Shown: positions 1,782-46,750 of the stretch, in pieces
Position numbering within the stretch: the first letter of the stretch is position 1
How the letters are laid out: every line of letters starts with the position of its first letter
Source of the DNA: Okamejei kenojei
Taxonomy: Eukaryota
DNA: 64,000 bases
Reading direction: 5' to 3'
Assembly: GCA_035221665.1 (NCBI GenBank)
Contig: JAVHYY010000112.1
Location: 248,001 to 312,000 of the forward strand
The notes under the pieces: model-generated
Database searches by the model: none
What the model was told of the DNA's origin: nothing
The model's input: only the letters and a program-made list of their open reading frames with translations
Position numbers and translations under genes: made by a program

Positions 1782-2759
1782 ATATACCACGGTCGCTTTT
1801 TAGTTGACATGTTTAATCTGAACTTTGAGGGAAACCCAACGAAGAGGACAAACGCAGTGCTCTATCGCCGGTGGACATGGCTAAGACTTTATTTTACGGG
1901 CCTGTTATGTCCTCATCCTGTTATATCACACTTTTTATCTTTACATCTCCCCCCTTTGTCCAACTATCTGGCAATCAAACCCACCCAGAATCCACCTGTC
2001 CCTTGACAGACATTGTGCATCCCGAACTCGCTTCCAGGTCCTCCACCACAAATCCTTCTGAAGAGGGGTCCGACCGTAAACGTTGCCTATCGACGTTCGC
2101 CAGAGATATATCTGGATCCCTGAGTTTACTCATGAACTTTGCGTAGTTTAGTTTGAAAATAAGTCTCTGCAGTTCTTTGTTTCAACATCTGCAGTTGACT
2201 TTACTCCCGTATTTCATACTAAGGTTGGCAAAGGTTGACGCCCGCCTGTGGGATATTCAATAACTGCAAGCTGACCTTGGAAGAGCAAGAAACCGCCGTC
2301 GCAGGTGACGAGCTCTTGTTTGAGCTGCCACCGGAAGGGTGTGAATTTGAATTTACACCTCATCCTTATTTGTTGTTTCGATGCATTGCAGGAGGACAGC
2401 ATTTGCAGAGCGTACCTTCTCTTCTTTGCTCGAAAGTGCAGGAAATATTTATATGCATTAGCACCACGTGCAGTTGTGTATTGAAAACACTGTAGTCCAT
2501 TAGAGGCAAATCACAAATGACTAGAGATGCTGGAATCTGTGGCAAAAATAAAGTTATGTGTTAGAGGGATTAAGCGCGTCTGCCAGACATTGTACAAGAA
2601 AATGGAACGCGTGAGACGAGATGTAGTAACACGAACGGTAAATCCCCACCACAATATTAAAGAGGGAGAGACGGCTGGATAAAAACAGCTGGGCTTGGTA
2701 CAATGCCTGTTTGTTCGTTGTCCATGTGGAGCATCCTTTGTTGCAAACGCATTCTCGCA

Positions 2760-3375
2760 AATTTTAGCAATGTTTAAAACATGTTTGAGATTTAAAAAAT
2801 CAAGTCTGGAATTAATCCCATCAGATAAAGCATAAAAAAAGTTTAATTTGACACCTAATTCACTTTCATAACTTCAGTATTAAAAATGTATGGCAATTTT
2901 CATACTAGGAAATTAGCACCTTGTTCCTATTGCTTTTACATAGATTTAATTCAAAGCTGTGATCTAGGACAGTCAATAGCCCATGACTTCTTAAAAAAAA
3001 TAAGAGAACAGAATAAAATTTACAGGTACGATAGATTGAAGCATTCTGAAACAAATAATGAAAGAATCTTACTTGACTGACCTGAAATTAAAGCATATAA
3101 TTAGCTAGTTACCTAATTGTAGCTAATTACAAAATTCAATTACTGGATCTAAACATCTATCCATTTCTTAAGTGGTTAACATTTTTTAATAGCCTAAGTT
3201 TCCAAATAACATTCACACAAGAATTCACAACACAACATGATTTTTTTAATCTCATTGTCGTGAATTTATAGGCCAAATGGAAGGAATACAGTGTTTAATT
3301 CCCGTAAACTAATGGGCATTTAAATCATCTTGCGAGTGGGATTTTGAGGAAAGCGATCGTTTGGAGCGTTGCAGA
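2760..3375. mobile_element. AT-rich insertion, possibly a DNA-transposon remnant
   Basis: Absent from the other cassette copies, where flanks (11531 and ~12209) are joined by ~680 bp of different sequence; family not identified. Confidence 0.35.
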
Positions 3376-4075
3376 AGATGATGTTATTCTCGTCGCCAAT
3401 AAGCGATACTTGTTCAATCTCGGTATCATTCATAATCGCACTAAAGATTATGTTTGAATGCCACGTTGTTACCTTCCCCCCAGCTAACATTGATATTCGA
3501 GATTTTATGGACCAGCGTCCGCTTTGATCTATCATTTTCACACCTTACCCTTCCATATCGCTAGTCGCCCCCTCCCCTGCATTTCAGTCTCGACTCGAAA
3601 ACGTCTCCTGTCCCACCTATATTTTTTGTCTATCTTCGGCAGGGTACTACAGGATTGAACACCATAAAGTAGAGTACAGGCCGGTGCACATCTACCGCAT
3701 TGTGGGCATTGGGATTTGATTCTGGAATTGATGCGCTGCAATGTAAATAACTTTATTCTGCACTCTGTATCTTTCCCTTTTATCTATTGCACTTCGGTTT
3801 GAATGGGTTTGTATTTATGGATCGTTATCTGGTCTGATCGTTATCCCTGACCACTATAAATCTAAACCCAATCATGTGTTTTCTAGACACCCATTATGTC
3901 ACGCAGATTTCGCCCTCAGCACGGAGAACAGTGGGTTTCAGCTGCACCGATAATACCGCAAGCCGCCCTCGAGAGAAACTGAGTGAGTGGGGATGAATTC
4001 TCAGGCGGCGGGAAACCACAACGACCAAGAACAGTGCAGACGTATCTCGCTGCAGCAGGAAAAGCAGAAGCTAAT

Positions 4076-4115
4076 GTTTTTTGTAGGAAGGTTTTCACTT
4101 GTTCCCATCACTGTG
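4076..4115 (-). other. RSS of V1 (CACAGTG, 24-bp spacer, ACAAAAAAC)
   Basis: cactgtg at 4109-4115, gttttttgt at 4076-4084. Confidence 0.85.
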
Positions 4116-4424
4116 CGGCTAAAGGCGCAGCAATAAACTGCAGAGTCGCTCAGCTTCAGCCACCGAAAGGTTAAACTGACTAATTTTCTATCGGTCGGAG
4201 CTGGACAGTGAAGAGAGCGCCTGCAAATTCGGCTTTCTTCTCGCTACCCACTTGAATATTTAATTCAGGATGAATTCGGGCCTTGAGTCCTGTTGACGTC
4301 GGTACCAATATAAGTAGTAGCCCGTTACTGTGGTATCATAGGTGCAGCTGAATGTCACCGATTCTCCTTCTACCCTCCGTGCTAACGGCAAGCGATTGCG
4401 TGACGCTATCTCCATGATTGGAAT
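4116..4424 (-). pseudogene. TCR alpha/delta-type V pseudogene V1 (family I), leader exon deleted
   Basis: DSVTQS..EGESVTFSCTY..YYLYWYR..LSDSAVYCCAFSR with several frameshifts; leader and promoter missing at ~4620 compared with paralogs. Confidence 0.9.
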
Positions 4425-4944
4425 CTGGTAAAAAATATATGGATTTTGTTTAGGGTTGTCATACGTGCACCGAAATACGGGAAGACTTTTGTATTACATG
4501 CTACCCAAACAGATCAACGGATACTATACTTAAGTACAATCAAATAAACACACGTGCAAAATATAGATAAAGGGAAGATAGAGAGTGCAGAATAAAGTTA
4601 TTATTATTGGTAGCGGATCTGTAACAAGGGATAGTCGGCGTTATGAGGAACTCTTAGGTATCATAATGTAAACGCACTGTGATGAGACGGGTTAATAGGT
4701 TACGTTGATTGCCTGGCGAAATGTACTTTCTGTTTACATTTATCTCCGAGTTAGAAATCATCCCCATTGAACCGCAAGGAACGGATTCGATGCGAGATAG
4801 ATGCAAGTTAGGATGCGCGGCCTCCTTTAGAGTACTGCGATCCGTTTTTGCGCACGTGTCATATGAAAGATGTTATCCAGCGAAAAAGGGTGCAGGGAAG
4901 ACGTGCGATGATATTTCCAACCCAAGGGACCTGAGTATGTTTCG

Positions 4945-5520
4945 TGTAGTTCAGAGATACAGCGCGGAAAACTGGCCGTTCGGCCCACCGAGTCCGTATC
5001 TACCATGCTCCACGCACATCAACATTACCCTCCACTGACTAGGACAATTTTACATCGATCAAGTCAAGTCAAGTCATTTTATTTCTACAGCACATTTAAA
5101 ACAACTCTCCTTGTCCACATTGCTTTACATTAGTGCAGGTACTAACGTGCTTACAAACAGTGGTACATAGATCAACAATACATACGTAAGTACATACATA
5201 CAGCGCTCCACCAAAGGACCCAAGAAAGGCTTGAGTGTATCAATAAGCTTTTAAGTCTAGTCTTAAAAGGGTTGATGAGGGGGGCTGTTCTCATGGGAAG
5301 AGGGATGCTGTTCCATAGTTTAGGTATTTCATCACAAGCCAATTAACCTACAAACATGTACGCCTTTGGATTGTGGTCGAAAAACCCAAGATTTCGGAGA
5401 AAACCCACGCAAGTCACGGGTAGAGCGGACAACTATGTACATAGTTGCCCGTAGTCAGGATACCCGTGTCTCTGGCGCATTTAAGGAAGTAGCTATACCG
5501 TTACGGGACCACCGTGCCGT
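4945..5520 (-). mobile_element. tRNA-derived elasmobranch SINE (HE1-like), interrupted by a LINE 3' fragment at ~5059-5325
   Basis: Same body (acccgtagtcaggat, gagaaaacccacgc, ggcccaccgagtccg) recurs many times in the window. Confidence 0.6.
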
Positions 5521-6224
5521 CGTGCCACTGAGCTATATGGTGAGGATGAGTTCGTCTAGGACGTTATAACATTATTCGCAGGGGATGAAGGGTGTACAAA
5601 ATCATGAAGGAATTGATTGGGTAAACGGACAGGGTCACTTGACCCGTATAGGGGAGGTAGAAAACCAGAGCATACAGGTTGAAGGTGTGTGTGTGGTGGG
5701 GATTTAATAGGAACCAGAGGGGTAACCTTTTTACACAAACAGTGGTGGGTGTCTAGATCGAGCTGCCGGGGGTAGGTAGTTGAGGCAGGTACTATCGAAA
5801 CCTTTTAGACAGGGACATGGAAAGGATAGACATGGAGGAATATTGAGCCAAGCGCAAGCTGATAGGATTAGTGTAGATTGGACATATCGGTCGTTGTTTA
5901 AGTTTGTACCTGTGTTGGTGAGAGAGTGTAAAATTTGGGTTAGACCTGAGAAGAACAGTTGGGTCGCGATAGACGCAACACGGCAATGTAGGCCCAGCCC
6001 AATAACCAGATTGGACTGAACCAACTTTGGTGGCCGCATTTGTGCTTCAGGAGACAGGTAGTTTGGCAGTGACGACCGTGATACAACGGGCAACAGATAA
6101 ATTAGTAATTGTGCCGCTTCGGTTTTTTCTCACCTAATTCACGGTTAAGTTTTAACAGGAAATTCAGGATAGACAGTAAGCAGACAGTATTAAAGGGGAT
6201 ATAAGCATATTTATCTCTTCTGTC

Positions 6225-6808
6225 AATAGGCAATAGGTGCAGGAGTAGGCCATTCGGTCCTTCGAGCCAGTACCGCCATTCAATTTAATCATGGCTATGA
6301 GTTATGGGGAAAAGGCAGGAACGGGATACTGATTGGGGATGATCAGGCACGATCACATTAAATGGCGGTGCTGGCTTCGAAGGGCCGAATGGCCTACTCC
6401 TGCACATATTGTCTATTGTCTATTTGGCTAATCATCCCCAATCTGTACACCGTTCCTGCCTTCTCCCCATAATCCCCTGACTCCGCTATCGTTAAGAGCC
6501 TTGCCTAGTTCTCTCTTGAGACTCATAACTCTCAGTGAGAAAAAGTGTGTTTCCTCGTCTTCGTTTTAAATGGCTTACCCCTTTTTCCTTCAGCTGTGCT
6601 TCCCTGATTCTGGACTCCCCCCCAACATTTGGAACATGTTTCCCTGCCTCTAGCTTGTCCAAACATTTTTAACAATCTTATATCTTTCAATAAGATCCCC
6701 TCTCATTCTGCTAAACTCCCCCAGACCGTACAAGCCCAGCCGCTCCATTCTCTTAGCAAATGACATCCCCGCCGTCCCGGGCATTAATCTTGTAAACCTA
6801 CGCTGCAG
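6225..6808 (-). mobile_element. CR1 LINE 3' fragment with a nested inverted CR1 3' end (6298-6424)
   Basis: QRRFTRLMPG..ERLGLY..RMRGDLIE; nested piece flanked by tggcta at 6292-6297 and 6425-6430. Confidence 0.85.
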
Positions 6809-7449
6809 GTCGATATCCTTGTATAAATATCCGCATCGACAGAACCACCGACAGTAACACACATAGCACCGGAGTTCTCCAGCAGGTCGCGCAGCATCCG
6901 GGTAGGGAATGGATAGGGTGACGTTTGGAGTCGGGACCTTTCGTTGGTCTGATTGTGGGCTACTGACCCTAAACACGCCTGTCTATTTCCTCCACAGATG
7001 AAGCCTGATCTACTGAGCTTCTCCTCTACTTTCAATGCTTCTCAACATTTTCAACATCCGTCAGTTTCACCGGTCGAAAGACGGTGGACTCTGGAGAGAA
7101 CTCGTGTAGCAGCAGTAAAGTATGGAAAAGAGCTGAATGCAGGACTGTTGTTTGAACAACGTTTATTGTGCCAGGTACAACAATAGAGCAACGGGACAAG
7201 CAGAGACAAATATAGACCGTGTCGTTATGAAGATAAACGGGGGAAAGATGTATTGAACACGTGTGATTGCAGCATTACGTGCAGAGTTGAGGGTGCACGG
7301 CCTTGACTCGGAGGACATGGCGTCCTTCGCGGAGGTTTGGAAGCTATTCTTTGGAATTGTGGCGAATTTGCAGGATTCCAAAGAATTTTTATCACCTCAT
7401 TGTCCCCATTCAGGATATAGCCGCGTTGCTCCATATGAAGCATTTTATT

Positions 7450-7597
7450 TTTTAAAGAAGGAACTGCAGATGCTGAGAATCGAGGGTACACAAAAAGCTG
7501 GAGAAACTCAGCGGGTGCAGCAGCATCTAAGGAGCGAAGGAGATAGGCGAACGTTTCGGGTCTCGACCCGAAACGTCCGCCTATCTCCTTCACTTTT
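7450..7597. mobile_element. Short Penelope-like terminal-repeat insertion with partial palindrome
   Basis: aagaaggaactgcagatgctg...acgtttcgggtctcgacccgaaacgt; flanked by duplicated tgaagcattt; empty site in paralogs at ~30485 and ~42525. Confidence 0.7.
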
Positions 7598-7759
7598 TGA
7601 AGCATTTATATGTTCAGCGTTCTTTCACGCTCTTCCCCCAGTCCCTAAGTGCACACGCGCAAACATGTAGTCCTTTTCTTTGATTGTTTAGCACGCAAAC
7701 AAAACGTTTTATTTTACTGTTTATTTTACTGTACGTGACAATAATAAAATAATGAAACA

Positions 7760-7920
7760 ACATTAATACTAAACTAAACTTAACTAAACTAAACGAAACT
7801 AAACTTTACTTAACCTAACTAACTGAACTGAATTGAACTAAACTAAACGTAATGAAACTAAACTGAACTGAACTGACCTAAACTAAACTAAGTTCAACTA
7901 AACTAAATGTAATGAAACTC
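7760..7920. repeat. (AAACT)n microsatellite; paralogs at ~30640-30810 and ~42670-42845
   Basis: Direct reading. Confidence 0.9.
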
Positions 7921-8659
7921 ACTGACATGATTCGGGAACTGTTCAATGCACACTGACGTTCAGGTATATACTTGTCGTTACGTTTGCTCATCATGTAACA
8001 CCGAGCTCCTTGGGTAACACTATTTTGCTTTTATTGCTTCAGATTTTCCTTTATATAAGCTGTGGGGCGGAGGAGCTTCTTTGTGTAGTTTCGTGACCCA
8101 ACTCCAGGACTATACATGAAATGTGTAAAAATAGTATATAAATCATCCCTGAAACTCGTCAAGAACACAACGTGCACATTTGTTTTTTAAATTGGAGATA
8201 AACCGGAAACATATCGATAATTTTAGTCCAATCAAAGCACATTTGACATCGAGTCGGACGCCATTGGCCAATCATGCGCTTTGTTTCTGGCTATTAGCCG
8301 GGGAGCACACAACACGGGTGAGATTACTTCTACTGATGCATATTTTGCTGGAATTCACTATGAGTTTCTTTGTTGTCTGTGAATACATATCGTGGAAACT
8401 TGCAGCAGTGTAATTGAATTTAGTGAGAAAAGCATTAAGAAGTCCTGAAGAATGTGCAACTAAGTGAGAGAAGTGGAAACAAAGCCCGTTGAAAGCAAAG
8501 TCCCTGCTCAGGTGCTGCAGTCAAACTTTGTGAATCAACTGGAATTGAAAGGTAAATTCTAAAATCTGAATTTATGAAAATGAATCTGTATGGACTTTAA
8601 TTAATTTAATTGCTCCCTTTTATAATGTGAATAAATGAGATTTGGAGCGAGCATTAATT

Positions 8660-8772
8660 AATTAATTCATTCACTTGCATTCATTCACTCATTAATTCAC
8701 TCATTCACCAATTCATTGACCTATTCATTCACTCATTCATTCACTCATACATTCACTCATTCATTCACCCAT
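8660..8772. repeat. (TCAT/TCAC)n microsatellite adjoining the N-gap 8773-8929
   Basis: Direct reading. Confidence 0.9.
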
Positions 8773-10032: not shown

Positions 10033-12956
10033 GCTCGGAAATTAATTTGGTTGGGTTGGAATGGTGGGCAGGATCAATAATTCACGCGAATGCTTTGCGG
10101 TCTCGGTCTCACATTGAATGAACACAACGCATTTTCGCGGATAATAATAAAGATAGGCAAACGTCAAAAAAGATTTCCACACGCTAAAAAAACCTTCAAA
10201 ATAATAAAATGGCCTTATCCTCCTTGATTTAATCGGTGCTCTGGTAAATGTTTGATGAAGCGAGGGGTGGATCTCATCATTCAAAACTGGAGATGAACAA
10301 CCAACAAAATAATTTGCAGCAAGTTGAAGCATGACACATCGTTTTTAAAGGAGAGGAGCGTCTCGGCGTCCAAACTATTCATCTCCATCGCGGATTCAAT
10401 GCTTTCTCTTAACATCTCGTCTGTGCCATTTTACAAAGCCATTGCCCACATATCGCCCCTCCTCGTGCCTTGGCCGTTATTTCCCTTCATCCTCTGACAA
10501 AGTTAGATTATTTTAATATTATTATCAGTGGCATTATTTTTATGTATGTTGTTGTTAGATAATTTCATTGAATTAATTGAGAAATTCTTGTCACTGTTAT
10601 TTTTCAAGAGCGCGCGCCGGTGTGTAAATCTTCGGCGACTTGATGCCTATCTTTATCATTCTCTTAGAACATTCTTGTTACCGATATTCATCCGATTGGT
10701 TCACCCCAAGCTCTGCCTCACCTCACTGTATTCAGATAAAATATACCGTAGGTCCAACAGTTGCAGTGGCCCCAAGTTCGACTGTGTAGATCTGTGATTG
10801 ACAAATAAGCTTGCAGTGTAGTTACCGGATTGACCAACTAACCGGGATACACGCCTGTGCACACTGTGATTGACGATCCATTCCCCTCTATAACAATAAT
10901 ATACCAGGTATTCTGCCGATCACTTATTTTCGCAACTGAGTTCAGGCAGATCAATACCATTCGAACATTTTAAGACACGACGCCATTTTACAAAAATATA
11001 TACAATTTAATGAAGAAAACTATATGAAGCAACGTGTCATGATTTGAAATAAAGATAATTTTCATCTTGCTTGTTTCGCTTTGTTATGTAGAAATTAGGA
11101 TCGTGCTAAGCGTTTACGCCGTATATCTACCCGTTCTGCCAGAACAGCCTTCCCGTCCATTCTTGAAAGCAATCAGAAATTGATCCAATACCGTGTAAAT
11201 CAAGCCAACCTTTATTTATACCAGGGAAGAAAGCACGGTTGATAATTGTGGTGCATTGGAGACAAGTCGCAAATGACTACAGATGCTGGAATCTGCAGCA
11301 AAAATAAAATGACGTGTTGGTGAAACTCAGCGGCGTCTGCCAGACATTGTACAACTAAATGAAATGCTTGAGACGAGTTGTAGTACACAAACAGTGAATC
11401 CCACCTGAGGATTAAATGATTAGTGGATGGACTGCGGTGAGGGGGACGGATGGAGAAAACAGCACGGCTTGGTACGATGCCTGTTTCTTCGTTGGCCATA
11501 TGGAGCATCCTTTGTACCAAAATCCATTCTCGCAAATCTCCCCAAGCGCGGATTACGGCTTGTGGACTGCCTTTTGGAGCCAGCAGTACAGGCTAATATT
11601 TTTAACTTCGCCACTAATGTCCGCCCCGGCGTGAAATTGGACTGGAACTACTTTGCTCCTCCATTTTCCTAATCGTTTTGGCTATGTACCCCGATGGTTA
11701 CACCGACTCAATAGATGAGGGGTGATGTAATCTGCAGCAATAAAATAAAACAATTGGCTGGAGCTGCGTCCACTTGAACCCTGTTGTGCCCAGTATCTTG
11801 GCAAATTGCACAACGGGGCGTAGATAGGGATTCCTGCAGCAAGTAGAAAGTGTCAATATGAGTTTTTTGCAAACACACAGACGAGGCACGCTGATCACGT
11901 GATGTGTTGTAGGTTACACAGACTCACTTCGACATCGTTTCCGCTAATCAAGCCCCTTCCTTTTGACGACCACGGATGGATTCGGGGGCCTGTGATGTTG
12001 GATGGTTGAGATCAACTCAGAAATAGGAGCCGCGTCAGGCTTTCGCTGTGCTATCAATGAGCAAGTGTGGAATCGCTCTCCTCTTGTCCGCGTCTGCGAT
12101 GACGTTGGCAATAAAGCACTTGATGTAATGCGTTCAGCTGCAATGAGCAACATTGCATTCCCCAATCGAGCCTGACAATTGACAATGTAGGGAGCACACA
12201 GATGAAGAAGATGATGTTTCATCCTCGTTGCCAATAAGCGATATATTTCAATCTCGGTATCATTCATAATTGCACTGATGTTTCTGTTTAATGCCACGTT
12301 GTTATCTTCCCTCCAGCTAACAATTATATTCGACATTTCCTGGATCACCGTCCGCTTTGATCTATCCTTTTCCACACCTTAAACCCTTCCATATCGTTAG
12401 TCCCCCTCTCCCCTGCCTACCATCTCGACCCGAAACGTCCCGCCTCCGGTCCCCGCTTTTACACCAGCATTCTGTGTCTATCTTCGGCAGGGTAAGATTT
12501 AACTCCATAAAGTAGAATACAGGCCAGTGGCATTGTGGAAATTGGGATTCGATTCTGGAATTGATGCGCTACAATGTACAGAGCTTTGTTCTGCACTGTG
12601 TAATCTTTCAATTTGCTCTATCTATTGCACTTCGCTTTGAATGGGTTGTATTTATGCATCGTTATCTAATCTGATGGCCAGCCTGGGAAGCATAGTTTAT
12701 CACTGTATCTCTGACCATTATGAATCTAAATCCAATCCATGTGATTTCCAGACAGCAGACATGGCGATTCTGTTCACACAGATGCCTCCCTCTGCACGAG
12801 CACAGCAAGGGTGTCGGTGGGTTTCAGCTGCGCCGAAGACACCGCAAGCCGCCCTCGGGAGAAACTGAGTGAGTTGGGGTCCTCAGGCGGCGGTAAACCA
12901 CAACCATCAAGCGCGGTGCAGAAGTATCTTGCTGCAGCAGGCGAAGGAGAAACTGA

Positions 12957-12995
12957 TGTTTTTGTATGAAGGTTTCACTTGTTTCCATCACTGTG
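12957..12995 (-). other. 23-RSS of V2 (CACAGTG, 23, ACAAAAACA)
   Basis: cactgtg 12989-12995; tgtttttgt 12957-12965. Confidence 0.92.
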
Positions 12996-13925
12996 CGGCT
13001 CAGTGCGCAGTAATAAACTGCAGAGTCACTCAGCTCCAGGCCCGAAAGGGTTAAACTGACTAATTTGCTATCAGTCTGGAGCTGGGCAGCGAAGCGAGCG
13101 CCGGCAAAATCGGCTTTCTTCTCGCTTCCAGTTGAATATTTATACAGTATGAACTCCGGCCTTGAGTCCTGAGATGCCGGTACCAATATAAGTAGTAGTA
13201 CGTTACTGCGGTATCATAGCTGCAGCTGAAAGTCATCGACTCTCCTTCTACATTCTGTGCTGACGGGAACGATTGTGTGACGGTATCTCCATGATTGGGA
13301 TCTGAAAAAATATACGGATTATGTTCAGGTTTGTCATGCGTGCACCGAAATACGCGGAAGACCTTTGTATCACATGCTACTCAAACAGATCAACTGATAA
13401 TATAGTTCAATATAATCAAATTAAACGCACGTTCAACCGATAGATCAAGGGAAGATAGAAAATGCGGAATAACGTTATTATTATTGTAGCGAATCAGTCC
13501 CAGAGACAAACGCCAATTTGTCTCTGGGACTGGGTAGACATGCATCGCATAATTCGCTTGTATATCAAGGTGAACCGAACATTGCCGCGGCTTATAGGTA
13601 GGAAGGAACTACAGATGCTGACTTAAACCGAAGTTAGACACGAAAAGATGGAGTAACCCAGCAGTCAGCCAGCCTCTCTTGACAAAAAGAATAGATGACC
13701 TGATCAAGGGCCTGGACCCGAAACATTACCTATACCAAGTAATTTTCTCCATGGCATGTGGATGGTGATTAGATTGTACCCGGCTTTCCATTGCATATAA
13801 AGTTTAGACCGGTTCGCATACGCAATGATGGTCGACGTTCCGTCGGAGTAAGTAGCCGGATTAACAGCTGCGACTTTACCTATGAGGCATGCTCCCCACA
13901 CAATCCAAATGGCAAATACGCGCAT
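12996..13925 (-). pseudogene. TCR alpha/delta-type V2 (family I): leader 13880-13925, V exon 12996-13301, single 1-bp deletion
   Basis: Leader MRVFAIWIVWGACLI|G with GT donor; DTVTQSFP..FSCSYD..WYRH / QDSRPEFIL..LSDSAVYYCALSR; CATCTCAG versus paralog CATCATCAG at ~13172. Confidence 0.92.
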
Positions 13926-16563: not shown

Positions 16564-16963
16564 ATGTGGTTCCTCATTATCTGGATGGCGCGGGGAACAT
16601 TTTTGATAAGTAATAGTGACACACACGCATTTCTTGTCTCTTTTACTTGTGAAACAGGGTATGAATCTCAGAATTTAAATCTCGCAGGTCTGATTATTTT
16701 TTTCCCGTTTGGATCTATTGTTACAGATCATGGCCGTGCAGATTCTATTACTCAGTCGCTGCCGTTAGCAGTGAAGACAGAAGGAGAAGCAGTGACATTA
16801 GAATGCACATACAATACCCCAGGTGCCTTCATGATATACTGGTATCGACATATGCCCGGCTGAGAGCCGAGTACACTTAACGGAAAGACAGCGATGGCTA
16901 TGAACGGAATGTGGAGTTTGCTGAAAGTCGTTTCTCTGTCGAACACCGCACCAAGAGAAAATT
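16564..16963 (+). pseudogene. V3 (family II), 3'-truncated, no RSS: leader 16564-16609, V exon from 16727
   Basis: MWFLIIWMARGTFLI; DSITQSLPLAVKTEGEAVTLECTY..WYRHMPG then TGA at 16861; joined at ~16964 to sequence homologous to 36842. Confidence 0.9.
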
Positions 16964-17561
16964 CTCTGCATCAACGATTCCTGTATTCAGATAAAATATA
17001 CCGTAGGTCCTACAGTGGCAGTGCCCCCAAGTTCGACTCTGTAGTTCTGTGATTAGTCAGAGTAATTAGGAAATAAGCTTGCAATGTATTTACCGATTGA
17101 CCAACTAAACGGGATACACGCCTGTGTACACTGCGATTGACGATCCATTCCATCTATAACAATAAAATACCAGGTTATTCTGCCGATCGCTTATTTTCGC
17201 AAACGAGTTCTTGCAGATCAATAATATTCCAACATTTTAAGACACGACAATATTTTTTCAGAAAGCTATCCAATTTAACGAATAAATTTATGTAGCAATG
17301 TGTCTTTATTTGAAATAAAGATAATTTTGGCTTTTTTATGTAGAAATTAGGATCGTGCTAAGCGTTTATTCCGTATATCTAACCTGTTGTATCAGAACAG
17401 CCTTCTAGTCCATTCTTGAAAAGCAATCAGAAATTGATCCAATTCCGTGTAAATCAGGCCAAAATGTATTTATTCCAGGGAGGTGAATACGGTTGACAAT
17501 TTCACAATGCGTTGTTCATTTTCTGGTTTCCATAGATCAATAAGCGCTACAATCACAGATC

Positions 17562-19198: not shown

Positions 19199-19237
19199 TG
19201 TTTATGTAGGAAGGTTTCACTTGTTTCAATCACTGTG
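19199..19237 (-). other. 23-RSS of V4 (CACAGTG, 23, ACATAAACA)
   Basis: cactgtg 19231-19237. Confidence 0.85.
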
Positions 19238-20162: not shown

Positions 20163-20261
20163 TTTCCCTGTGAAAACCCCTTTGTGTATGTCCCTCATCG
20201 ACCTGGTGCTGAGCGGCTTTCGGATGTTCTCGTTTCTACGGTTGGTGCTGATGGCGCTGTG

Positions 20262-25000: not shown

Positions 25001-25232
25001 TGGTTTTGTCTGCCTGCCACTTTTATTTTTCACCTTGCTACCCATTGCTTCTACCATCATTTTACACCCACTTGCCTCTCTGCTCTTGTACCCAACCCCC
25101 TGCCACATTAGTTTAAATCCTCCCCGACAGCACTAGCAAACACTACCCCATTGGTTCCATTCCAGCCCAGGTGCAGACCGTCCTGTTTGTACTGGTCCCA
25201 CCTCCCCCTAGTTTGTACTGGTCCCACCTCCT
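22061..25232 (-). mobile_element. CR1-clade LINE, near-complete ORF2 (APE endonuclease + RT) and end of ORF1, degenerate
   Basis: [37 protein letters not shown]; ORF1 esterase-like YKQDGLHL; (TTTCTATG)n tail; TSD ccattt 22055-22060 and 25233-25238. Confidence 0.95.
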
Positions 25233-26437: not shown

Positions 26438-26476
26438 TGCTTTCGTAGGAAGGTTTAACTTGTTTCCATCACTGTG
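26438..26476 (-). other. 23-RSS of V5 with degenerate nonamer (ACGAAAGCA)
   Basis: cactgtg 26470-26476. Confidence 0.75.
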
Positions 26477-31099: not shown

Positions 31100-31570
31100 A
31101 TGTGGTTCCTCATTATCTAGATGGCGTGGGAAACATATTTGATAAGTAATAGTGACACACATGCATCTCTTTTCTATTTTACTTGTGGAACAGGTTCTGA
31201 ATCTCAGACTTTAAATCTCGCCGGTCTGATATTTTTTTTCCGTTTGGATCTATTGTTACAGATCACGGCCGTGCAGATCCTGGCACTCAGTCGCCGCCAT
31301 TAGCAGTGAAGACAGAAGGAGAAACAGTGACGTTGGAATTCACCGTTTCTCCCCGGGTGCCTACAGTATATACTGGTATCGACAGATGCCCGTCTCAGAG
31401 CCCGTCTCAGAGTACACTTTACGGAAAGACAGCGATGGCGATGAATGGAAAGCGCAGTTTGCTAACATTCGTTTCTCTGTCGAACTCCGCACCGGGAGTA
31501 AATTCATCAGTTTGACCATCTCAGATCTGGAGCTGAGCGACTCTGCAGTTTATTACTGCACTTTCAGCCG
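31100..31570 (+). pseudogene. V6 (family II): leader 31100-31145, V exon 31262-31570
   Basis: TAG in leader at 31118; first Cys replaced by Phe; frameshift; local duplication (PVSEPVSE); ends LSDSAVYYCTFSR. Confidence 0.92.
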
Positions 31571-31608
31571 CACGATGATGGGAATCACTATACACCAATA
31601 CAGAAACA
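31571..31608 (+). other. RSS of V6 (CACGATG, 22-bp spacer, ACAGAAACA)
   Basis: Direct reading; heptamer mutated. Confidence 0.8.
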
Positions 31609-32106: not shown

Positions 32107-32146
<40 letters not shown>

Positions 32147-35834: not shown

Positions 35835-38800
35835 ACAATTTAGCTCATTAGAAAATTAATTGAATTTAGGTTAGTTTAGAGATACAACGCAGAAACAGGT
35901 CCTTCGGCCCACCGAGACCACATCGACCAGCGAACCCCACAAAGTAACATTATCCTACACACACTGGGGATAATTTACACTTACAGCGAGCGAAGTAACC
36001 TACATGCCCGTACGCCACAGATCTCGGGAGAACACACGAGGTCACGGAGATAACCTATCAATATCCGTGCAGGCAGCACCCGTAGTCGGGATCGAGCTCG
36101 GGTCTCCGACGCCGGAAGTGATGTAAGACAGCAGGTCTACTGATGCGCCACCGTGGCCGCCCAGAATTTAATTTATGTGGGTTGGAATGGGGAGCAGGAT
36201 CAATAATTCACGCGAATGCTTTGCGGTCTCGGAGCACACCGTGAATGTTAGTATATGAACACAACGCATTTTCGCAGAGAATAATAAAGAAAGGAGCCAA
36301 GTCAAAAACGATTTCCACTCGCTGAAAACGCCCTTAAAATAACAATATTGCCTTCTCCTCCTTGAATGAATAGTGGTAAGTAAATGTTTGATGAAGCGAG
36401 CAGTGTAACTCATCATTGAAACTGGAGATGAACAACTAACAAAATAATTTGCAGCAATTTGAAGTGTGACATAAGGTTGTTAAAGAAGAGGAGCGTCTTG
36501 GCGTTGAAATGTTCATCTCAATTTCGGATTCCATGCCTTTCTCTTAACATCTCCGCTGCGCCATTTTACAAGGCCATTGACCACATATCGCCGCTAGTAG
36601 TGGTTTTGCCCTTATCCCCTTTCATCCCCTGACGAAGCTCGATTCTTTAAATATTATTATCAGTGGCATTAGATTTATGTATGTTGTAGGATAATTCAAT
36701 GAATTCATTGAGAATTGTTGTGACTGTTATTATGAAGAGCGCGCGCCGGTGTGGAAATCTTTGGCGACTTGATGCATATCTTTATCATTCTCTTAGAAAA
36801 TTCTTGTTGCCCATATTTACCCGGCGTGGTTCACCCCAAGATCTGCCTCAACGATTACTGTATTCAGATGAAATATACCGTAAGTCCAACAGTAGCAGTG
36901 CCCCTAAGTTCCACTCTGTAGTTCTGTGATTGATCGGAGTATTTGGCAAATAAGTTTGCAGTCTAGTTACCGGATGACCAACTAACCGGGATACATGCCT
37001 GTGTACACTGTGATTGACGATCCTTCCATCTATAACAATAACATACGAGGTTATTCTGCCGATCACTTATTTTCGCAGCTGAGTTTAGGCAGATCAATAA
37101 CATTCGAACATTATAAGACACGACAACATTTTCCAGAAAGATATCCACTTTAACGAAGAAAATGTTATGAAGCATCGTGTCTTTATTTGAAATAAAGATA
37201 ATTTTCATTTAGCTTCTTTCGCTTTCGTATCTAGAAATTGGGATCGTGCTAAGCGTTTACTTCGTATATCTAACCCGTTCTGCTGGAACAGCCTTCCAGT
37301 CCATTCTTGAAAGCAATCACAAATTGATCCAATTCCGTGTAAATAAGGCCAGACCTTATTTATACCAGTGAAGAGAACACATTTTGCAATTTCGCAATGC
37401 GTTATTCATTTTCTGCTTTCCTTATGATACAGCAGATATTATATTTGCCTTCCGCATTTGAAAATATTGTAGTGCATGGGAAACAAGTGACAAATGACTA
37501 TAGTTGCTGGAATCTGCAGCACAAGTAAAATTACGTGTCTAAGGATCTCAGCGGCGTCTGCCAGAAATTGTATAAGAAAATGAAATGCGTGAGACCAGTT
37601 GTGGTACACGAACTGTGAATCCCCACCTGAGGATTAAAGAATTAGTGGATGGACTCTGGTGAGGGAGAGACGGGTGGGTATAACAGCAGAGCTTGATACG
37701 AAGCCTGTTTCTTCGTTGTCCACATGGGGCATCCTTTGTTGCAAACCCATTCTCGCAAACTTCCCAATTCGGCCTCCTCTGCGCGGACTACGGCTTGTGG
37801 ACGGCATCTTAGAACCAGGCAGTACAGGCTAATATTATTAATTTCCACACTAAAGTCCGTCCCGGCCTCAAATTGGTTGGAACCACTTTGCTCCTTTTTC
37901 CTAATCGTTTTGGGTCTGTAACCCGAAGGTTACACCGACTCAACAGGTGAGGGGTGATGTAATCTATAGCAAAAAAAACATTTGCTGGAGCTGTGTCCAC
38001 TTGAACCCTGCTGGGACAAGTATCCTGGCAATAGCACAACGGGGCGGTAGATAGGGCTTGATGCTGCAAGTAGCAAGTGTCAATATGAGTTTTTGCAAAC
38101 ACATATAGGAGGCACGCAGGATGACGTGATGTGTTGTAGGTTACACAGACTCACTTCGTCATCGTTTCCGCTCATCGAGGTCTTTCCTTTTGCAGACCAC
38201 GGATGGATTCGGGGGCCGGTGTTGTTACATGGCTGACGCCATCTCAGAAATAGGAGCCGCGCCAGGCTTCAATGTGTCAATGAGCCAGTGTGGCATCGCT
38301 CTCGTCATGTGCGCGGCTGCGATGACGTTGTCAATAAAGGACTCGATGTAACACTCTCTGCTGCAATGAGCAACATTGCATTGCCCAATCGAGCCGATTA
38401 TCGCCAATGCAGGGAGCACACTGATGAAGAAGGTGAGGTTTATCCTCGTCGCCATTAAGCAATACATTTTCAATCTCGGTATCATTCATAATCGCACTGA
38501 AGTTTCTGTTTGAATGCCACGTTGTTATCTTCCCTCGAGCTAACAATGATATTCGACATTTCCTTGATCACTGTCAGCTTAGATATATCGTTTTCACACC
38601 TTAACCTTCCATATCGCTAGTCTCCCTCTCCCCTGACTCCCAGTCTCGACCCTAAACGTCACCCATTTTCTCGCAGGATATGCATCCTGCCCCGCTGTTA
38701 CACCAGCATTCTGCGTCTATCAACGGCAGGATTGAACTCCATAAAGTAGATTTCAGGCCGGTGCACATCGACCCCATTGTGGACATCTGGATTTGATTCT

Positions 38801-39194
38801 GGAATTGATGTGCTCCATTGTAGAGAACTTTATTCTGCACACTGTATCTTTCGCTTTGCCCTATCCATAGCAGTTCGGTTTGAAAGGGTTGTATTCATGG
38901 ATCGTTATCTGATCTTCTGGCTAGTATGCAATGCATAATTCATCACTGTATCTCTGACAATTATAAATTTAAACCCAATCCATGTGTTTTCCAGACATCA
39001 GATATGGCAATTCTGTTCACACAGATACTGCCCTCAACACGGAGCACAGAAAGGGTTTCAGCTGCGCCGATGACACCGCAAGCCGCCCTTGAGAGAAACT
39101 GAGTGAGTTGGGAAGAATTCTCAGGCGGCGGGAAACCACAACCACCAAGCACTGTGCAGACGTATCTAGCTGCAGCAGGCAAAGCAGAAGCTGA

Positions 39195-39233
39195 TGTTCT
39201 TGTAGGACGGTTTCACTTGTTTCAATCACTGTG
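39195..39233 (-). other. 23-RSS of V7 (CACAGTG, 23, ACAAGAACA)
   Basis: cactgtg 39227-39233; tgttcttgt 39195-39203. Confidence 0.92.
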
Positions 39234-40166
39234 CGGCTAAAGGCGCAGTAATAAACTGCAGAGTCGCTCAGCTTCAGCCCCGATAGGGTTAAACGGAATA
39301 ATTTTCTATCGGTCTGGAGCTGGGGAGAGAAGCGATCGCCTGCAAAATTGGCTTTATCCTCGGTTCCTTGTGAATCTATGCTCAGTATGAACTCGGGGCT
39401 TGCGTCCTGATGATGCCGGTACCAAAATAAGTGGTAGTTCGTTTCTGCGGTGTCGTAGGTGCAGCTGAACGCCAGCGATTCTCCTTCTACCTTCTGTGCT
39501 GACGGCAGCGACTGTGTGACGGTATCTCCATGATTGGGATCTGAAAACATATATGGATTATGTTTAGGTTTGTTATGCGTTCAACAAAATACGCGGAAGA
39601 CCTATGTATTACATGCTACCCAAACAGATCAACTGATAATATACATAAATACAATCAAATCAAACGCACGTACAATAGATATATTAAGTGAAGATGGCGA
39701 GTGCAGAATAAAGTTATTATTATTGTAGCGAATCAGTTCCAGAGACAAAGGCCAATGTCGACACTGGGGTAGACCTGCATCGCATACCTCGCTTGCATAT
39801 CGAGGTGAACTGAACATTGCCGCGGCTTAAAGGTAGTAAGGAACTGCAGATGCTGACGGAAACCGAAGTTAGACACGAAAAGCTGGAGGAGCTCAGCGGG
39901 TCAGCCAGCCTGTCTTGACAAAAAGAATAGGTGACCTGAAGAAGGGTCTCGACCAGAAACATTACCCATACCAATTAATTGTCTCCATGGCATATGGATG
40001 GCGATTAGGTTTTACCCGGCTTTCCATTTACATATAGAAAATGATTAGACCGGTTCGCATTCACAATGATAGTCGACGTTCCGTCGGTGTAAGTAGCCGG
40101 ATTAACTGCTGCGACTTTACCTATCAGACATGCTCCCCATACAATCCAAATGGCAAATACGCGCAT
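39234..40166 (-). CDS. Intact TCR alpha/delta-type V segment V7 (family I): leader 40121-40166, V exon 39234-39540
   Basis: MRVFAIWIVWGACLI-DPNHGDTVTQSLP..FSCTY..LFWYRHH..RFSPQL..LSDSAVYYCAFSR; phase-1 GT/AG intron; both Cys and Trp present. Confidence 0.93.
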
Positions 40167-41170
40167 TTTCCCAGTGAAAACCCCTTTGTGAATGTTCCTC
40201 CTCGACCTGGTGCTGTGCGGCTTCCGGATGTTCTGGCCTCTCCTCCTGCTGCTGTGGTAACGATGGGCGGGAAGCGACTGATTTCCGCCTACCTCAACTT
40301 CCTCCTCATTTGGGACTCGGCCAGCGTTCTTTCAGGTTAGGCATGTAGTGACTGGGTGTGGAAGGAAACGTCGCTGTAACAGGGGATAATTGGCTCGGCA
40401 TTATGAGGAACTCTAAGGTATCATGATGCAAAGGAACTGTATGTGCGGGTCAATGAGGGAATTATATGTTACGTTGGTTGCCTAGCGAAATGTACTATCT
40501 GTTTAAATGTTTCTCCGAGTTACAAATTATTCCCTTTCCCTGATCGAACCGCACTGAACGGATTCGATGCGAGATAGGATACGACGCCACCTTTATAGCA
40601 TTGCGTTCCGTTTTGGGCACGTGCCATATGAAAGATGTTGTCAAGCAGGAAAATGTGCAGAGAAGACTTGCGACGATGTGCCAGCACCAAAGGCAGTTAG
40701 TTTTGTTTAGTGTAGTTCAGAGATACAGCGCGGAATCTGGCCCGTCGGCCCACCGAGTGCGCACCTACCAGAGATCCCCGCACATCAACAATACCCTACA
40801 CACACGAGAGACAGTTTTACATTTATAGCAAGCCAATTAACTTACACATATGTACGTCTTTGTAGTGTGGGCGGAAACACAAGATCTCGGAGAAAACCCA
40901 CGCAAGCCATGGGGGGAGCGTACAAACTGTGTACAGACAAGCACCCGTAGTCAGGATACCCGTGTCTCTGGCGCAGTAAGGAGGTATCTATACCGCTACG
41001 CCACCGTGCCGCCGTGCCACTGAGCTATATGGTGAGGATGAGTGGGCTAGGCCTTTATTCCATGATGCGCAGGGGGTTGAAGGGGTTACAAATGAGAGGA
41101 ATAGATCGGGTAAACGATCAGTCACTTGCCCAGTGTAGGGGAATAGAGAACCAGAGGAAACACGTTTAAG

Positions 41171-41178
41171 GTGTGTGT

Positions 41179-41245
<67 letters not shown>
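41171..41245. repeat. (GT)n microsatellite
   Basis: Direct reading. Confidence 0.95.
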
Positions 41246-41246
<1 letters not shown>

Positions 41247-43134
41247 TGGGGATTTAATAGGAACCAGAGGGGTTGCCTTTTTACGCAAACGGTGGTGGGT
41301 GTCTGGATCGAGCTGCAGGGGTAGGTAGTAGAGGAAGGTACTTGCGCGACACTTTTGACAGGTGCATGGAAAGGATAGACATGGAGGAAAATGGGCCAAG
41401 CGCAGGTTGATGGGATTAGTGAAGATGGGACATATTGGTCGGTGTTTGTGTGTGTGTTAATGTGCGCGTGTTTGTGTGTGTGAGAGAGAAAAAGAGAGAT
41501 AGAGTGGGAGACTCTGTTCGCTGTCCTTGGCCCCATGCACACGCTGATCATCATTTTTTCGTGGCAGAGGTAATTGATTTGAGAGGTGTTTTGGGGTTGT
41601 TAACTATATGTCGTACATTATCTGCTGTGCAGTCGATTTACCATGTTATAGAGTCGTGGTATAGAGCTTGGAAATATGCCCATCCGCTCAATCCGCCCAC
41701 ATCGAACAAAATGCGCCATCTACATTAGTCTAATTTGCCTGCGCGTGGCCCATATATCTCTATACCTTTCCTCTCCATGTACCAAATCGAAATGTATTTA
41801 AAAGTTGAGATGGTAACTGCCTCAAAAACCTTCTCTGGCACCTCGTTCCATACACCGTCCACCAATGAGTGAAAAAGCTTCTCCTCAAGTTCTTATTAAA
41901 TCTCTCCGTCTCCTCTAACCACAAAAAAAACCCTACTCTGGGTAGAAAACTCTGTGAATACACGCTGCCTATACCCCTTGTGAGTAGGCAGACAGCATCA
42001 AAGGTGAGAGAAGCAAATTTAAATCTTATGTCGATATTCTTGTATAGAAATTCGCATAGACAGAACCACCTAGCGCCACATGGCGCCGGAATGCTCAGCA
42101 GGTCGCTAAGCATCCGTGAAGGGAATGGATAGGGCGACGTGTTGAGTCGGGACGCTTCGTTGGTCTGATTGTGAGCTACTGACCCAAAACATCGCCTGTC
42201 TATTTTCCTCTGATGTTCAAGCCCGAACTACTGAGCTTTTCCGGTACTTTCCATTCGCTCAATATTTCTACATCCATCAGTTTCACCGTCGAAAGCAAAT
42301 ATAGACCATGTCGTTATGAAGATAAACTGGGAAAATGTGTATTGAACACGTGTGATTGCTCATTACGTGCACAGTTAGGGTGCACGGCATCCAGTCGGCG
42401 GACATGCAGTCCTTCGCGGAGGTTTGGAAGATATTCATTGGAACTGTGGCGAGTTTGGAGGACTCCACAGGACGGTATCTCCCCATTGTCCCCATTCAAG
42501 GAGTATAGCCGCGCTGGTCCATATGGGGCATTTATATGTACAGCGTTCTTTCACTCTATCCCCCAGTCCTAAGTGCACACACGGAGACATGTACAGTATT
42601 TTCTTTGACTGCTTAACACGCAAACAATACATTTTATTTTAAACTATTTCTTATTATACGTGACAATAACAAACTAATCTAAACCAAACTAAACTAAACT
42701 AAACTAAACAAACTAAACACAACTAAACTAAACTTAACTAAACTTAACTTAACTGAACTGAATTGAACTCAACTAAAGGTAATGAATCTAAACTAAACTG
42801 AACTGAACTAATCCAAACGGAAGTGAACTAAACTAAACTTAATGAAACTCACAGACATGATTTGGGAGCAGTTCAATGCACAATGACTTTCAGTTATATA
42901 CGTGTCGTTACATTTGCTCATCATATATCATCACCGAGCTCCTTGTGTAACACAATTTCGCTTTTATTGCTTCAGATTTTCCCTTAAAAGTGCAGTGACT
43001 CCAGCGCAGCTGTTGCGTCAACAGATAGACCCCACCCCGCTCACCGCGATTGGACAGCCAACGGAGACACGGGGCAACAACGAGGGAGCGCTCTGTTTGC
43101 CGCCAGCGCATCAACAACTCAGCTGACAGACACC

Positions 43135-43600
43135 ATGTGGTTCCTCATTATCTGGATGGCATGGGGAACATTTTTGAAAAGTAATAGTGACACGCATACA
43201 TTTCTTTTCTCTTTTACTCGTTAAACAATGTATGAATCTCAGACTTTAAATCTCGCTGGTCTGATAATTTTATTCCGTTTGGATCTATCTTTACAGATCA
43301 GGGCCGTGCAAATGTTGTCACTCAGTCACTGCCATTAGCATTTAAAACAGAAGGAGAAGCAGTGACGATGGAATGCACCTACAAAACACCAAGTGCCTAC
43401 AGTATATACTGGTATCGACAGATGCCCGGCTCAGAGCCCGAGTAAACTTTACGCAAAGACAGGGATGGCGATGAATGGAAAGCAGAGTTTGCTGTTGGTC
43501 GTTTCTCTGTCGAACACCGCACCGGGAGTAAATTCATCAGTTTGACCATCTCAGATCAGGAGCTGAGCGACTCTGCAGTTTATTACTGCACTTTGAGCCG
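43135..43600 (+). pseudogene. V8 (family II): leader 43135-43180, V exon 43297-43600, single nonsense codon
   Basis: MWFLIIWMAWGTFLK..VVTQSLPLAFKTEGEAVTMECTY..WYRQMPGSEPE*TLRK..LSDSAVYYCTLSR; TAA at 43443-43445 where paralog V6 has TAC. Confidence 0.93.
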
Positions 43601-43638
43601 CACAGTGATGGGAATCAGTATACACCCGTACAGAAACA
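43601..43638 (+). other. RSS of V8 (CACAGTG, 22-bp spacer, ACAGAAACA)
   Basis: Direct reading. Confidence 0.9.
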
Positions 43639-44202: not shown

Positions 44203-44230
44203 GACGTTTCGGGTCGAGGCCCTTCTTCAG
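44203..44230 (-). ncRNA. Minimal hammerhead-ribozyme-like core from a Penelope-like repeat
   Basis: Minus strand CTGAAGA-A-GGGCCTCGACCC-GAAAC-GTC. Confidence 0.45.
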
Positions 44231-44427
44231 TCGTCTTCAGATGGGGCATGTTGGTCGGCGTGGGCAGTTAGGCCGAAGGACCTGTTTGCATGCTGTATTA
44301 CTTTATGACTCCATAATTAAATCATTCTTGAATCTACGACAGCAGTAATTGATTCGTGTTAGGACACAACATGAAAAGAGGTCCTTTAGTCAACAGAGTG
44401 CACGCCGGCCATCACTCACCAGTTCAC

Positions 44428-44569
44428 TGTGTTTAAGAAGGAACTGCAGATGCTGGAATATCGAAGGTAGGCAAACGTGCTGGAGAAGCTCAGCGGGTGC
44501 GGTTGCTGCAGCATCTTCGCTCCATAGATGCTGCCGCACCCCGCCGAGTTTCTCCAGCACTTTTATCTC
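44428..44569. mobile_element. Short Penelope-like terminal-repeat insertion
   Basis: aagaaggaactgcagatgctgg body; flanked by ctcaccagttcac and ctcagcagttcac; empty site at ~32594. Confidence 0.7.
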
Positions 44570-45676
44570 CTCAGCAGTTCACACTTGCTCCTACATTCGC
44601 ATCTAATTCCGACGCATGAAGGCAAATGTACAGTGGCCAATTAACCTACAATCTCGCACGACATCAGAGATATGGGGAGAAACCGCAGGGAAGATAAGCG
44701 GTCGCACGAATAACAAGTAGACACCACACAGCCAGCACCGCAGGTGAAAACAACGGAACGCTTCACCACTGTTCCATGGTTTAGGGGTGAGTCGCATGGA
44801 GAGATTGTGCATCAACGGTTTTAATACAATTTAGTTCATTCGAACAATGAATTCAGTTTTGTTTCGTTTAAAGATACAACACAAAAAAAGGTCCCTCGGC
44901 CCAACGAGACCGCACCGACCAACGAGCCCCCACACATTAACATTGTCCCACACACACACGGGACAATTTACACTTACACCAAGACAATTAACCTACATAC
45001 CTGTACGCCACAGATCTCGGAGAACACCCACGAGGTCATGGCGCGAACGTACAAACTCCGAACAGGCAGCACCCGTAGTCGGGATCGAAGTCGTGTCTCG
45101 GGCGCTGCAAGTGCTGTAAGGCAGCAACACCACTGCTGCGCCACCGTGGCCGCCCGGAATTTAATTTGATTGGGTTGGAATGGTGGGCAGGATAAATAAT
45201 TCACGCGAATGCTTTGCGGTTTGGGAGCACGTCGTGAATGTTGGTATATGAACACAACACATTTTCGCAGAGATTAGTAAAGACAGGCACCAAGTAAAAA
45301 TATATTTCCTCACGCTAAAAAAAAAACCCCTTCAACATAACAAAATAGCCTTCTCCTCCTTGAATGAATAGTGGTCTGGTAAATGTTTGAGCGAGCAGTG
45401 GATCTCATCATTGAAATTGGAGATGAAAAACCAACAAAATAATTTGAAGTTATTTGAAGTGTGACATATGGTTGTTAAAGTAGAGCAGCGTTTAGCGTTC
45501 AAATCTTCATATCAATCTCGGATTCAATGTCTTTCTCTTACCATCTCCTCTGTGCCATTTTACAAAGCCATTGTCCACATATCGCGCCTACTCGTGCCTT
45601 TGCCCTTATCTCCGTTCACCCCTTCACTCGATTGTTATAATACTATTATCAGTGGCATTAGTTTTATGTATGTTGT

Positions 45677-46750
45677 AATGGCAAGCAGTGGTGAGTGGAG
45701 TGCCGCAAGGCTCGGTGTTGGGGCCGCAACTGTTTACCATATATATTAATGATTTGGAAGAGGGAATTAGGAGCAACACTAGCAAGTTTTGCGGATGACA
45801 CTAAGCTGGGTGGCTGTCTGAAATGTGAAGATGATGTTAGGAGGTTGCAGGGTAACCTGGACAGGTTGACTGAGTGGGCAGTTGCGTTGGAGATGCCGTA
45901 TTTACATTGATACATGTGAGGTTCTGCACTTTGGTGGCAGAAACAAGGGGCAGATTATTATCTCAACGGGGTTAGGTAAGATAAGGAGGAGATACAGCGA
46001 AACCTGGGTGTCCTTGTACACCGGTCACTAAAAGTTGGCGTGCAGGTACAGCAGGCAGCGATGAAAGCTAATTGATTTTTTTCCTTCATAACAAGAGGAT
46101 TTCAGTCCAGGTGTAAAAAGGTTATTCTGCAGTTGTATAGGGCTCTGGTGAGACCACATCTGGAGTATTGTGTACAGTTTTGGTCTCCTAATTTGAGGAA
46201 GGCCATCCTTGTTATTGAGGCAGTGCAGCGTATGTTCACGAGATTGATCCCTGGGATGGCGGGACTGTCATATGAGGAAAGATTGTAAAGACTAGGCTTA
46301 TATTAACTGGAGTTTAGAAAGGACGAGGGGGGATCTTATAGAAACATATAGCATTATAAAAGGACTGAACAAGCTAGATGCAGGAAAAATGTTCCCAATG
46401 TAGGGGAGTCCATAACCAGGGGCCACAGTCTTAGAATAAAGGGGAGGTAATTTAAGACTAAGGTGAGAATAAACGTTTTCACCCAAGAGAGTTGTGAAGT
46501 TATGGAATTCCCTACCACAGAGGGCAGTGGAGGCCAAGTCACTGGATGGATTTAAGTGAGAGTTAGATAGAACTCTAGGGGCTAGTGGAGTCAGGGGATA
46601 TGGGGAGAAGTCAGGCACGAGTTATTGTTAGGGGTATTATAGGGGAAGGGGCTAGTCAGGCACGAGTTATTGTTAGGGGTATTATCAGCCATAATCACAA
46701 GGGCCAAATGGCCTCCTCCTGCACCTATTTCTATGTTTCTATGTTTCTAC
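45677..46750 (+). mobile_element. CR1 LINE 3' fragment; terminates the last cassette copy
   Basis: [19 protein letters not shown]; tail tttctatgtttctatgtttcta. Confidence 0.92.

Follow-up and report, generated by a model that had tools for sequence, protein, structure and literature searches.

A 64,000-nucleotide stretch of Okamejei kenojei DNA (positions 248001–312000 of contig JAVHYY010000112.1, termed C176 here) contained a tandemly amplified block in which a variable (V) gene of one family, family I, on the minus strand stood head-to-head with a V gene of another, family II, on the plus strand. This whole stretch is called the window, and its coordinates are used below unless a contig is named. 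Our analysis suggested that family I is probably inverted relative to the joining (J) and constant (C) segments of the locus and would join by inversion, with family II as a decayed passenger. V segments were annotated with tblastn and a scan for recombination signal sequences (RSSs), by which contigs C176, C988, and C1046 were covered in full and C241 over 396 of its 526 kb; the tallies given here are automatic and include fragments. Ten V-type segments, V1–V10, were identified in the window. Because the best single-domain PDB matches of V7 were human T-cell receptor (TCR) alpha and TCR delta chains, and its best protein match (78%) was from the skate Amblyraja radiata, we assigned the window to a batoid-like TCR alpha/delta V array. 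The genes had the organization of a V-set domain (split leader, two Cys, Trp), with V7 and an intact family-II copy exceeding the Pfam V-set cut-off and leaders located. A 3' RSS with a spacer of 23 (22–24) bases was present on the V genes, the spacers of family II being 22 bases and V3 being without an RSS.

Self-BLAST of the window revealed collinear units on the same strand, mostly 75–88% identical, in which the intergenic spacers were homologous as well. A preliminary description of the window, made by reading the sequence, had proposed such collinear tandem units and a marker recurring at four sites, and both were confirmed: the marker core was CAAATGACTA at 2514, 11270, and 37491 and CAAATTACTA at 21561, with TGCTGGAAT 14 bases after each. 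The strands of the two families and their head-to-head spacing of about 2.6–3 kb were also as it had described, the ATG-to-ATG distances being 2,639 (V2/V3), 2,784 (V5/V6), and 2,969 bases (V7/V8), and 2.1–4.0 kb over all 10 pairs found in the genome. Its claim that the RSSs of the pairs point outward held for V7/V8, in which both were good, but not for V3, which had none, or V6, in which the heptamer was altered. The cassette was likewise less uniform than supposed: the V4 unit lacked the marker, and the V1 and V4 units lacked a partner. A third V-derived piece in each unit had been overlooked. The units, of 9–18 kb, were about 80–87% alike, and the distance from marker to marker ranged from 8.8 to 18.7 kb as a result of deletions and repeat insertions. 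The genes and landmarks of the units were as follows.

2481..2764, no strand: marker block of unit 1 (core 2514–2536)
4076..4424, minus strand: V1, family I pseudogene; lost its leader and promoter by deletion and has six indels of 1 base; RSS CACAGTG-24-ACAAAAAAC
4619..8055, no strand: spacer of unit 1, homologous to the V7–V8 spacer; it ends about 150 bases short of the place of the family-II ATG, and hence the unit is partnerless
11245..11537, no strand: marker block of unit 2 (core 11270)
12957..13925, minus strand: V2, family I; one base is missing from the V exon (lesion or consensus error), with the leader, the donor, and the RSS CACAGTG-23-ACAAAAACA all intact
16564..16964, plus strand: V3, family II pseudogene; TGA, 1-base deletion, truncated in framework 3, no RSS; directly abuts the flank of the next unit
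19199..20162, minus strand: V4, family I pseudogene; TGA, 9-base deletion, 6-base gain, second Cys changed to Gly; partial unit without marker or spacer
21529..21830, no strand: marker block of the V5/V6 unit (core 21561), parted from V5 by a 3.2-kb repeat insertion (22060–25234)
26438..28316, minus strand: V5, family I pseudogene; 0.9-kb repeat in the V exon (26536–27444), 7-base deletion, TAG, leader donor GG
31100..31608, plus strand: V6, family II pseudogene; TAG in the leader, a frameshift that its counterpart on C1046 also has, and an RSS with heptamer CACGATG and a spacer of 22 bases
37466..37762, no strand: marker block of the V7/V8 unit (core 37491)
39195..40166, minus strand: V7, intact family I gene; leader 40166–40121, exon 39540–39234, RSS CACAGTG-23-ACAAGAACA
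40167..43134, no strand: divergent V7–V8 spacer, 2,969 bases from ATG to ATG, homologous among units
43135..43638, plus strand: V8, family II pseudogene; a single TAA in frame, which the C1046 counterpart has as well; RSS CACAGTG-22-ACAGAAACA

The repeat inserted in V5 resembles a long interspersed element. The C1046 counterpart of V5 had neither this insertion nor the 7-base deletion and stop, and its exon was open, but the dead leader donor was in common. A tandem repeat of about 57 bases lay at 17920–18568, where the V4 unit has lost its marker and tail. Families I and II were treated as different V families because V7 shared 63.5–65% of V-exon nucleotides with family II, which falls under the boundary of 75% nucleotide identity given for V families in the consulted part of PMC12698447. 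In a quick protein tree, the two families formed separate branches within one larger clade.

When the genome was searched and the matches were judged against the V7/V8 unit, 14 family-I units were found (seven on C176, four on C1046, and three on C988). A family-II partner was kept in 10 of them, with four complete pairs in succession on C1046, and a genome search with V8 detected no family-II copy outside the units. These results agreed with the earlier proposal that the array expanded by copying of the divergent pair, to which the spacer and flanking DNA can be added. Among the four partnerless units, two retained 1.3 and 1.9 kb of the spacer, one was a short partial copy, and one was cut by a larger duplication. 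The homologous marker block was present in 13 copies in the DNA analyzed, every one within a unit (13 of the 14 units). A 23-letter marker pattern gave eight matches in the whole genome, seven in units (four on C176 and three on C1046) and one on C44, with none for a reversed-pattern control. The marker might be a dispersed short interspersed element, which it resembles; no match to it was found outside the units in 1.75 Mb at E 0.01. Independent copies of the unit diverged by 8–18% alike in the tail, family I, the spacer, and family II. It is extremely improbable that the repeats are an artefact of assembly. The region of C176 at about 216–222 kb, V1, and the contig ends were rich in 1-base indels typical of a noisy consensus, but the units stood 8–18% apart by substitutions, unit-specific lesions were common to the C176 and C1046 counterparts, and the separate contigs C1046 and C988 carried the same units.

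Family II was broken in nine of the 10 copies in the genome, including all three in the window, by differing lesions. The lesions of V6 and V8 were judged to be real because the same lesions recurred in their C1046 counterparts. The family-II RSS was intact in three of seven independent copies and lost or damaged in the other four. Family I was clearly intact in three of its 14 copies (V7, C1046:38.6 kb, and C1046:55.1 kb); V2 was doubtful, two C176 copies were too noisy to judge, and V7 was the only clearly intact cassette gene in the window. No pair of the 10 had both genes intact. These counts make it very unlikely that the pair is a selected module, acting as a bidirectional promoter or a rearrangement toggle, or that family-II pseudogenes have been kept as RSS decoys. 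Although the spacing stayed within 2.1–4.0 kb in 10 pairs and the RSS of V8 was good despite the stop, the lack of a doubly intact pair and the damage to four of seven independent family-II RSSs stand against such a module, as does the spacer, which diverged (10–18%) no less than the flanks and had undergone large deletions and insertions. The role of family-II pseudogenes as decoy RSSs was rejected, as their RSSs decay together with the genes.

To determine the polarity of the two families, constant exons and J segments were located by a J pattern search and an open-frame scan. No J segment was found on C176. Of the 86 matches to the J pattern, C241 carried 84 on its minus strand, with 80 at 78–201 kb and four at 245–256 kb. 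That strand also held two D segments, a Cδ exon (237 kb), a Cα-like exon (73 kb), and 15 of the 16 V matches of the contig, in the order V-D-Jδ-Cδ-Jα-Cα. The names Cδ and Cα were assigned from position and resemblance. The Cδ exon scored 15.5 bits with Pfam C1-set, which is under the cut-off, the Pfam model PF09291 detected no Cα in the genome, and none of the best 150 C1-set matches lay on C176 or C241. The minus strand of C241 aligned with the plus strand of C176 at 616–721 kb with 79–92% identity and conserved gene order; the aligned genes are presumably a NAR-TCR-like V, its supporting V, and three further V genes. The end of C176 overlapped the start of C988 (89–98% identity, with indel-rich differences), and the ends of C988 and C241 mapped to consecutive positions of C176. 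On C176, all 58 V matches in 1–200 kb and all seven in 600–726 kb were on the plus strand. Because of this common gene order and the majority orientation of the V genes, plus is probably the J-C direction, which would place family II in line and family I in inverted orientation.

The location of J and C, which the preliminary description had named as the way to fix polarity, was thus found on C241 and linked to C176 through homologous gene order, and its statement that one family must join by inversion was supported. Its choice of family II as the test case, both for rapid amplification of cDNA ends and for refutation, was misplaced: nine of the 10 family-II copies are broken and this family most likely shares the J-C orientation, family I being the likely inverted one. 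Alternatively, the whole C176/C988 V block might be inverted relative to D-J-C, in which case family II and the large array would invert and family I would delete. The distal human IGK copy is an example of a V block inverted relative to J-C. We consider this arrangement unlikely here: no sequence overlap joined C988 to C241, which had only repeats at their ends, but C241 carried NAR-TCR-like cassettes and a trio of V genes that face as J does, ordered as they are on C176 plus, and the consecutive mapping of the C988 and C241 ends also argues against it. In its favor, the teleost TRA locus has been described, in the portions consulted, as having such a layout (PMC8559430, PMC7775753).

Several results weigh against the interpretation of family I as the inverted, usable member and family II as the passenger. 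The sole intact family-II copy (C988:285 kb) had a broken family-I partner. The ratio of nonsynonymous to synonymous change (pN/pS) was 0.76 for each family, and 0.60 for family I versus 0.77 for family II in the framework only. Because the pN/pS values were equal in both families, the case that selection favors family I over family II, or that family I drove the expansion, appears weak. Among seven independent units, family-I distances correlated with spacer distances (Mantel r 0.55, p 0.02), and the corresponding values for family I and family II were r 0.03 and p 0.49, rising to r 0.56 and p 0.005 only upon the addition of three near-allelic pairs. The family-I and spacer trees both held a group of V7V8, c281, and V5V6/b76; the family-II and tail trees disagreed with the spacer tree. 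Co-duplication therefore rests on collinearity, because the distances and trees of the unit parts were only partly congruent, and the pattern fits a burst of copying with later exchange between copies. Finally, the polarity was drawn from cross-contig homology of 79–92% rather than from continuous sequence, which leaves room for the V block as a whole to be inverted with respect to C241.

The third V-derived piece was found in all 14 units, and in the V7/V8 unit it was located as follows.

38759..39080, plus strand: remnant, in forward orientation, of a gene of family-I type, comprising its intron and the start of its V exon; it lies tail-to-tail with family I, immediately beyond the RSS of the latter

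This remnant was 65% identical to V7 over 341 columns. About 190 bases of the likeness of its intron belonged to a genome-wide repeat that is also in the family-I intron. Outside that repeat, the remnants matched family I best (z 8–12), with z 6–7 reached by family II and two relatives; for the remnant of the V7/V8 unit, z was 12 against V7 and 6 against family II. The head-to-head layout may accordingly stem from an inversion or an inverted duplication that occurred long ago. A search of five spacers and one tail did not find the missing half of the truncated V (best E 0.08), and therefore an inversion broken inside a V gene and an inverted duplication are indistinguishable. Under either event, a family-I gene would have been flipped beside a forward family-II gene, with a truncated forward family-I piece left at the tail. 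The resulting three-piece block would then have been amplified in a burst through unequal crossing-over, which may account for copies 8–18% apart in all parts, followed by deletions, repeat insertions, and exchange between copies. In the V7 gene, the family-I intron carried an old repeat (39596–39782) that is spread over many chromosomes; the family-II intron was 116 bases long and had no such repeat.

Inverted V genes were common beyond the cassette. In C176 at 200–600 kb, 24 of the 36 V matches were on the minus strand and 12 on the plus, and a NAR-TCR-like cassette at 507–510 kb was also inverted. Two inverted genes lay in the window outside the cassette.

56575..56920, minus strand: V9; the V exon is open and the RSS has the consensus form; no leader was located
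61900..62245, minus strand: V10; the V exon is open and belongs to the large clade of forward V genes, inverted here; RSS CACGGTG-23-ACAAATACT

A quick tree built from 110 V proteins showed eight switches of orientation, at least five of which were forced by strong branches. Judged from these sequence comparisons, inversion is not special to the cassette; it is locus-wide and involves several lineages. The importance for secondary TCR-alpha rearrangement that had been attached to the cassette proved to be generic, since inversion is found across the locus (24 of 36) and has already been described for teleost TRA and Igk. A consensus heptamer was present in 12 of 17 inverted versus 13 of 70 forward intact V matches, a comparison that is confounded by lineage; forward genes of the same zone also had it (3/3), and the nonamers of the inverted genes were worse (1.5 vs 0.8 mismatches). 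In the main forward array (C176 8–197 kb), the non-consensus heptamer CACACTG was found in 29 of 35 intact matches, with near-perfect nonamers.

The inverted family might instead be unused, as expected from orientation-dependent RAG scanning of the kind at mouse Igh, with the cassette as a fossil array; this is unlikely. Igh scanning takes convergent RSSs only, as given in the available portion of PMC11153149, and most family-I copies of the window are broken. However, eight inverted V genes of C176, from several lineages, passed the automatic intact test, some being intact in C176 and C988 copies about 10% apart, and the framework pN/pS of family I was 0.60. Inverted genes are also used elsewhere, according to the parts of the literature consulted, namely Trdv5 in mouse (PMC4995090), Vκ genes, and salmon TRAV genes of both orientations. 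Homologue searches gave unrearranged V proteins only, from Amblyraja, Chiloscyllium, and Callorhinchus, and no full-length rearranged chain was found among 13 longer homologues. Three runs under the same species label, probably low-coverage DNA, had repeats only over the Cα–Jα stretch and an empty Cα exon bin, and were uninformative either way.

If family I is inverted as we propose, joining of V7 to D or J would turn around the entire segment that runs from V7 through the spacer and V8 as far as J, with nothing deleted. The signal joint would be kept on the chromosome, and the TCR-delta segments would be retained if the partner were Jα. V8 would then lie inverted just upstream, and V9, V10, and the other J-proximal inverted genes would be brought into deletional orientation. 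Were V8 instead the first to join, by deletion, V7 would be left inverted upstream. Because either first joining would leave the partner inversional, and never as the next deletional V, the pairing appears to have no evident value for editing. A broader scheme may be entertained only tentatively, in which the mostly inverted 400-kb V zone of the TCR alpha/delta locus of cartilaginous fishes is used via Igk-like inversional joining, the first inversion keeping TCR delta and making a deletional queue for alpha editing, with the cassette as an amplified module. Should the inverted genes be in use, it could be tested naturally in sharks and rays whether alpha rearrangement always loses TCR delta, and also whether TCR alpha relies on scanning or on diffusion, an alternative raised as a possibility for TRA in PMC13190342.

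Other features of the locus were noted on the same contigs. About 450 kb of the V array was doubled (C176 160–620 kb and C988 160–520 kb, 85–91% identity), representing either a large tandem locus duplication or a very divergent haplotype, and C1046 was a third version (88–98%) with a differing number of units. On C241, about 35 near-identical J segments spaced about 0.7–1.2 kb apart were detected at 123–151 kb by the J pattern search; we interpret them as a recent tandem burst inside the Jα cluster. In the V–D interval of C241, an inverted mini-cluster (297250–305839, plus strand) contained an IgH-like V with a 22-RSS, a J with a 12-RSS, and a second Cδ-like exon, which had 35% identity to the main Cδ and a Pfam C1-set score of 22.5 bits. 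No D was found between the V and J of this mini-cluster, which appears to be a second TCR-delta gene whose V resembles those of antibodies.

The cassette is a case of homology-unit duplication with collateral pseudogenes and inverted V genes, the head-to-head geometry being its only twist; it represents ordinary birth-and-death evolution in an unusual geometry. Its setting may matter more, as the batoid locus seems to mix V orientation gene by gene over 400 kb. V orientation is not mapped for the shark loci in the portions consulted of PMC12227049, PMC5931798, and PMC10322711, and neither a head-to-head V cassette nor mixed V orientation in elasmobranch TRA/TRD was found in the literature searched; the main shark locus papers or supplements (e.g., table S1 of PMC12227049) may already show either. 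The closest parallel for the amplification is bovine TRA/TRD, where, according to the consulted part of PMC4289303, multi-family V blocks were tandemly copied (TRAV2-TRAV3, 15 kb, seven copies) and mostly broken families grew collaterally. That text gives no opposite-facing V inside the units and describes nearly all upstream V genes of mammalian TRA/TRD as in line with J, whereas the units described here have a head-to-head pair and a third, truncated V piece. Inversional joining within TRA/TRD is known, from the parts consulted, for mouse Trdv5 and bovine TRDV3 (PMC4995090, PMC4289303); each of these is one gene behind Cδ, unlike an amplified upstream cassette. Mouse Igk resembles the present locus in having V genes of both orientations upstream of J, and inversion there is reported to retain the intervening V genes, with a primary inversion re-orienting neighbors for secondary joining (PMC6146092, PMC11153149, PMC13190342, each in part). 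However, orientation at Igk is arranged in clusters and the mechanism there (Cer/Sis, strong RSS) has experimental backing, whereas here, in a TCR locus, orientation changes from one gene to the next and is read from the DNA. Teleost TRA/TRD likewise has V genes that require inversion, and TRA joining by inversion, with the benefit that it brings to secondary rearrangement, has been stated for salmonids and minifish, the same argument as made here (PMC8559430, PMC7775753), with salmon using V blocks of both orientations (PMC8559430). In teleosts, as described in that portion of PMC8559430, the V genes lie downstream of Cα in large blocks, whereas in O. kenojei they are likely upstream of D-J-C with the two orientations interleaved.

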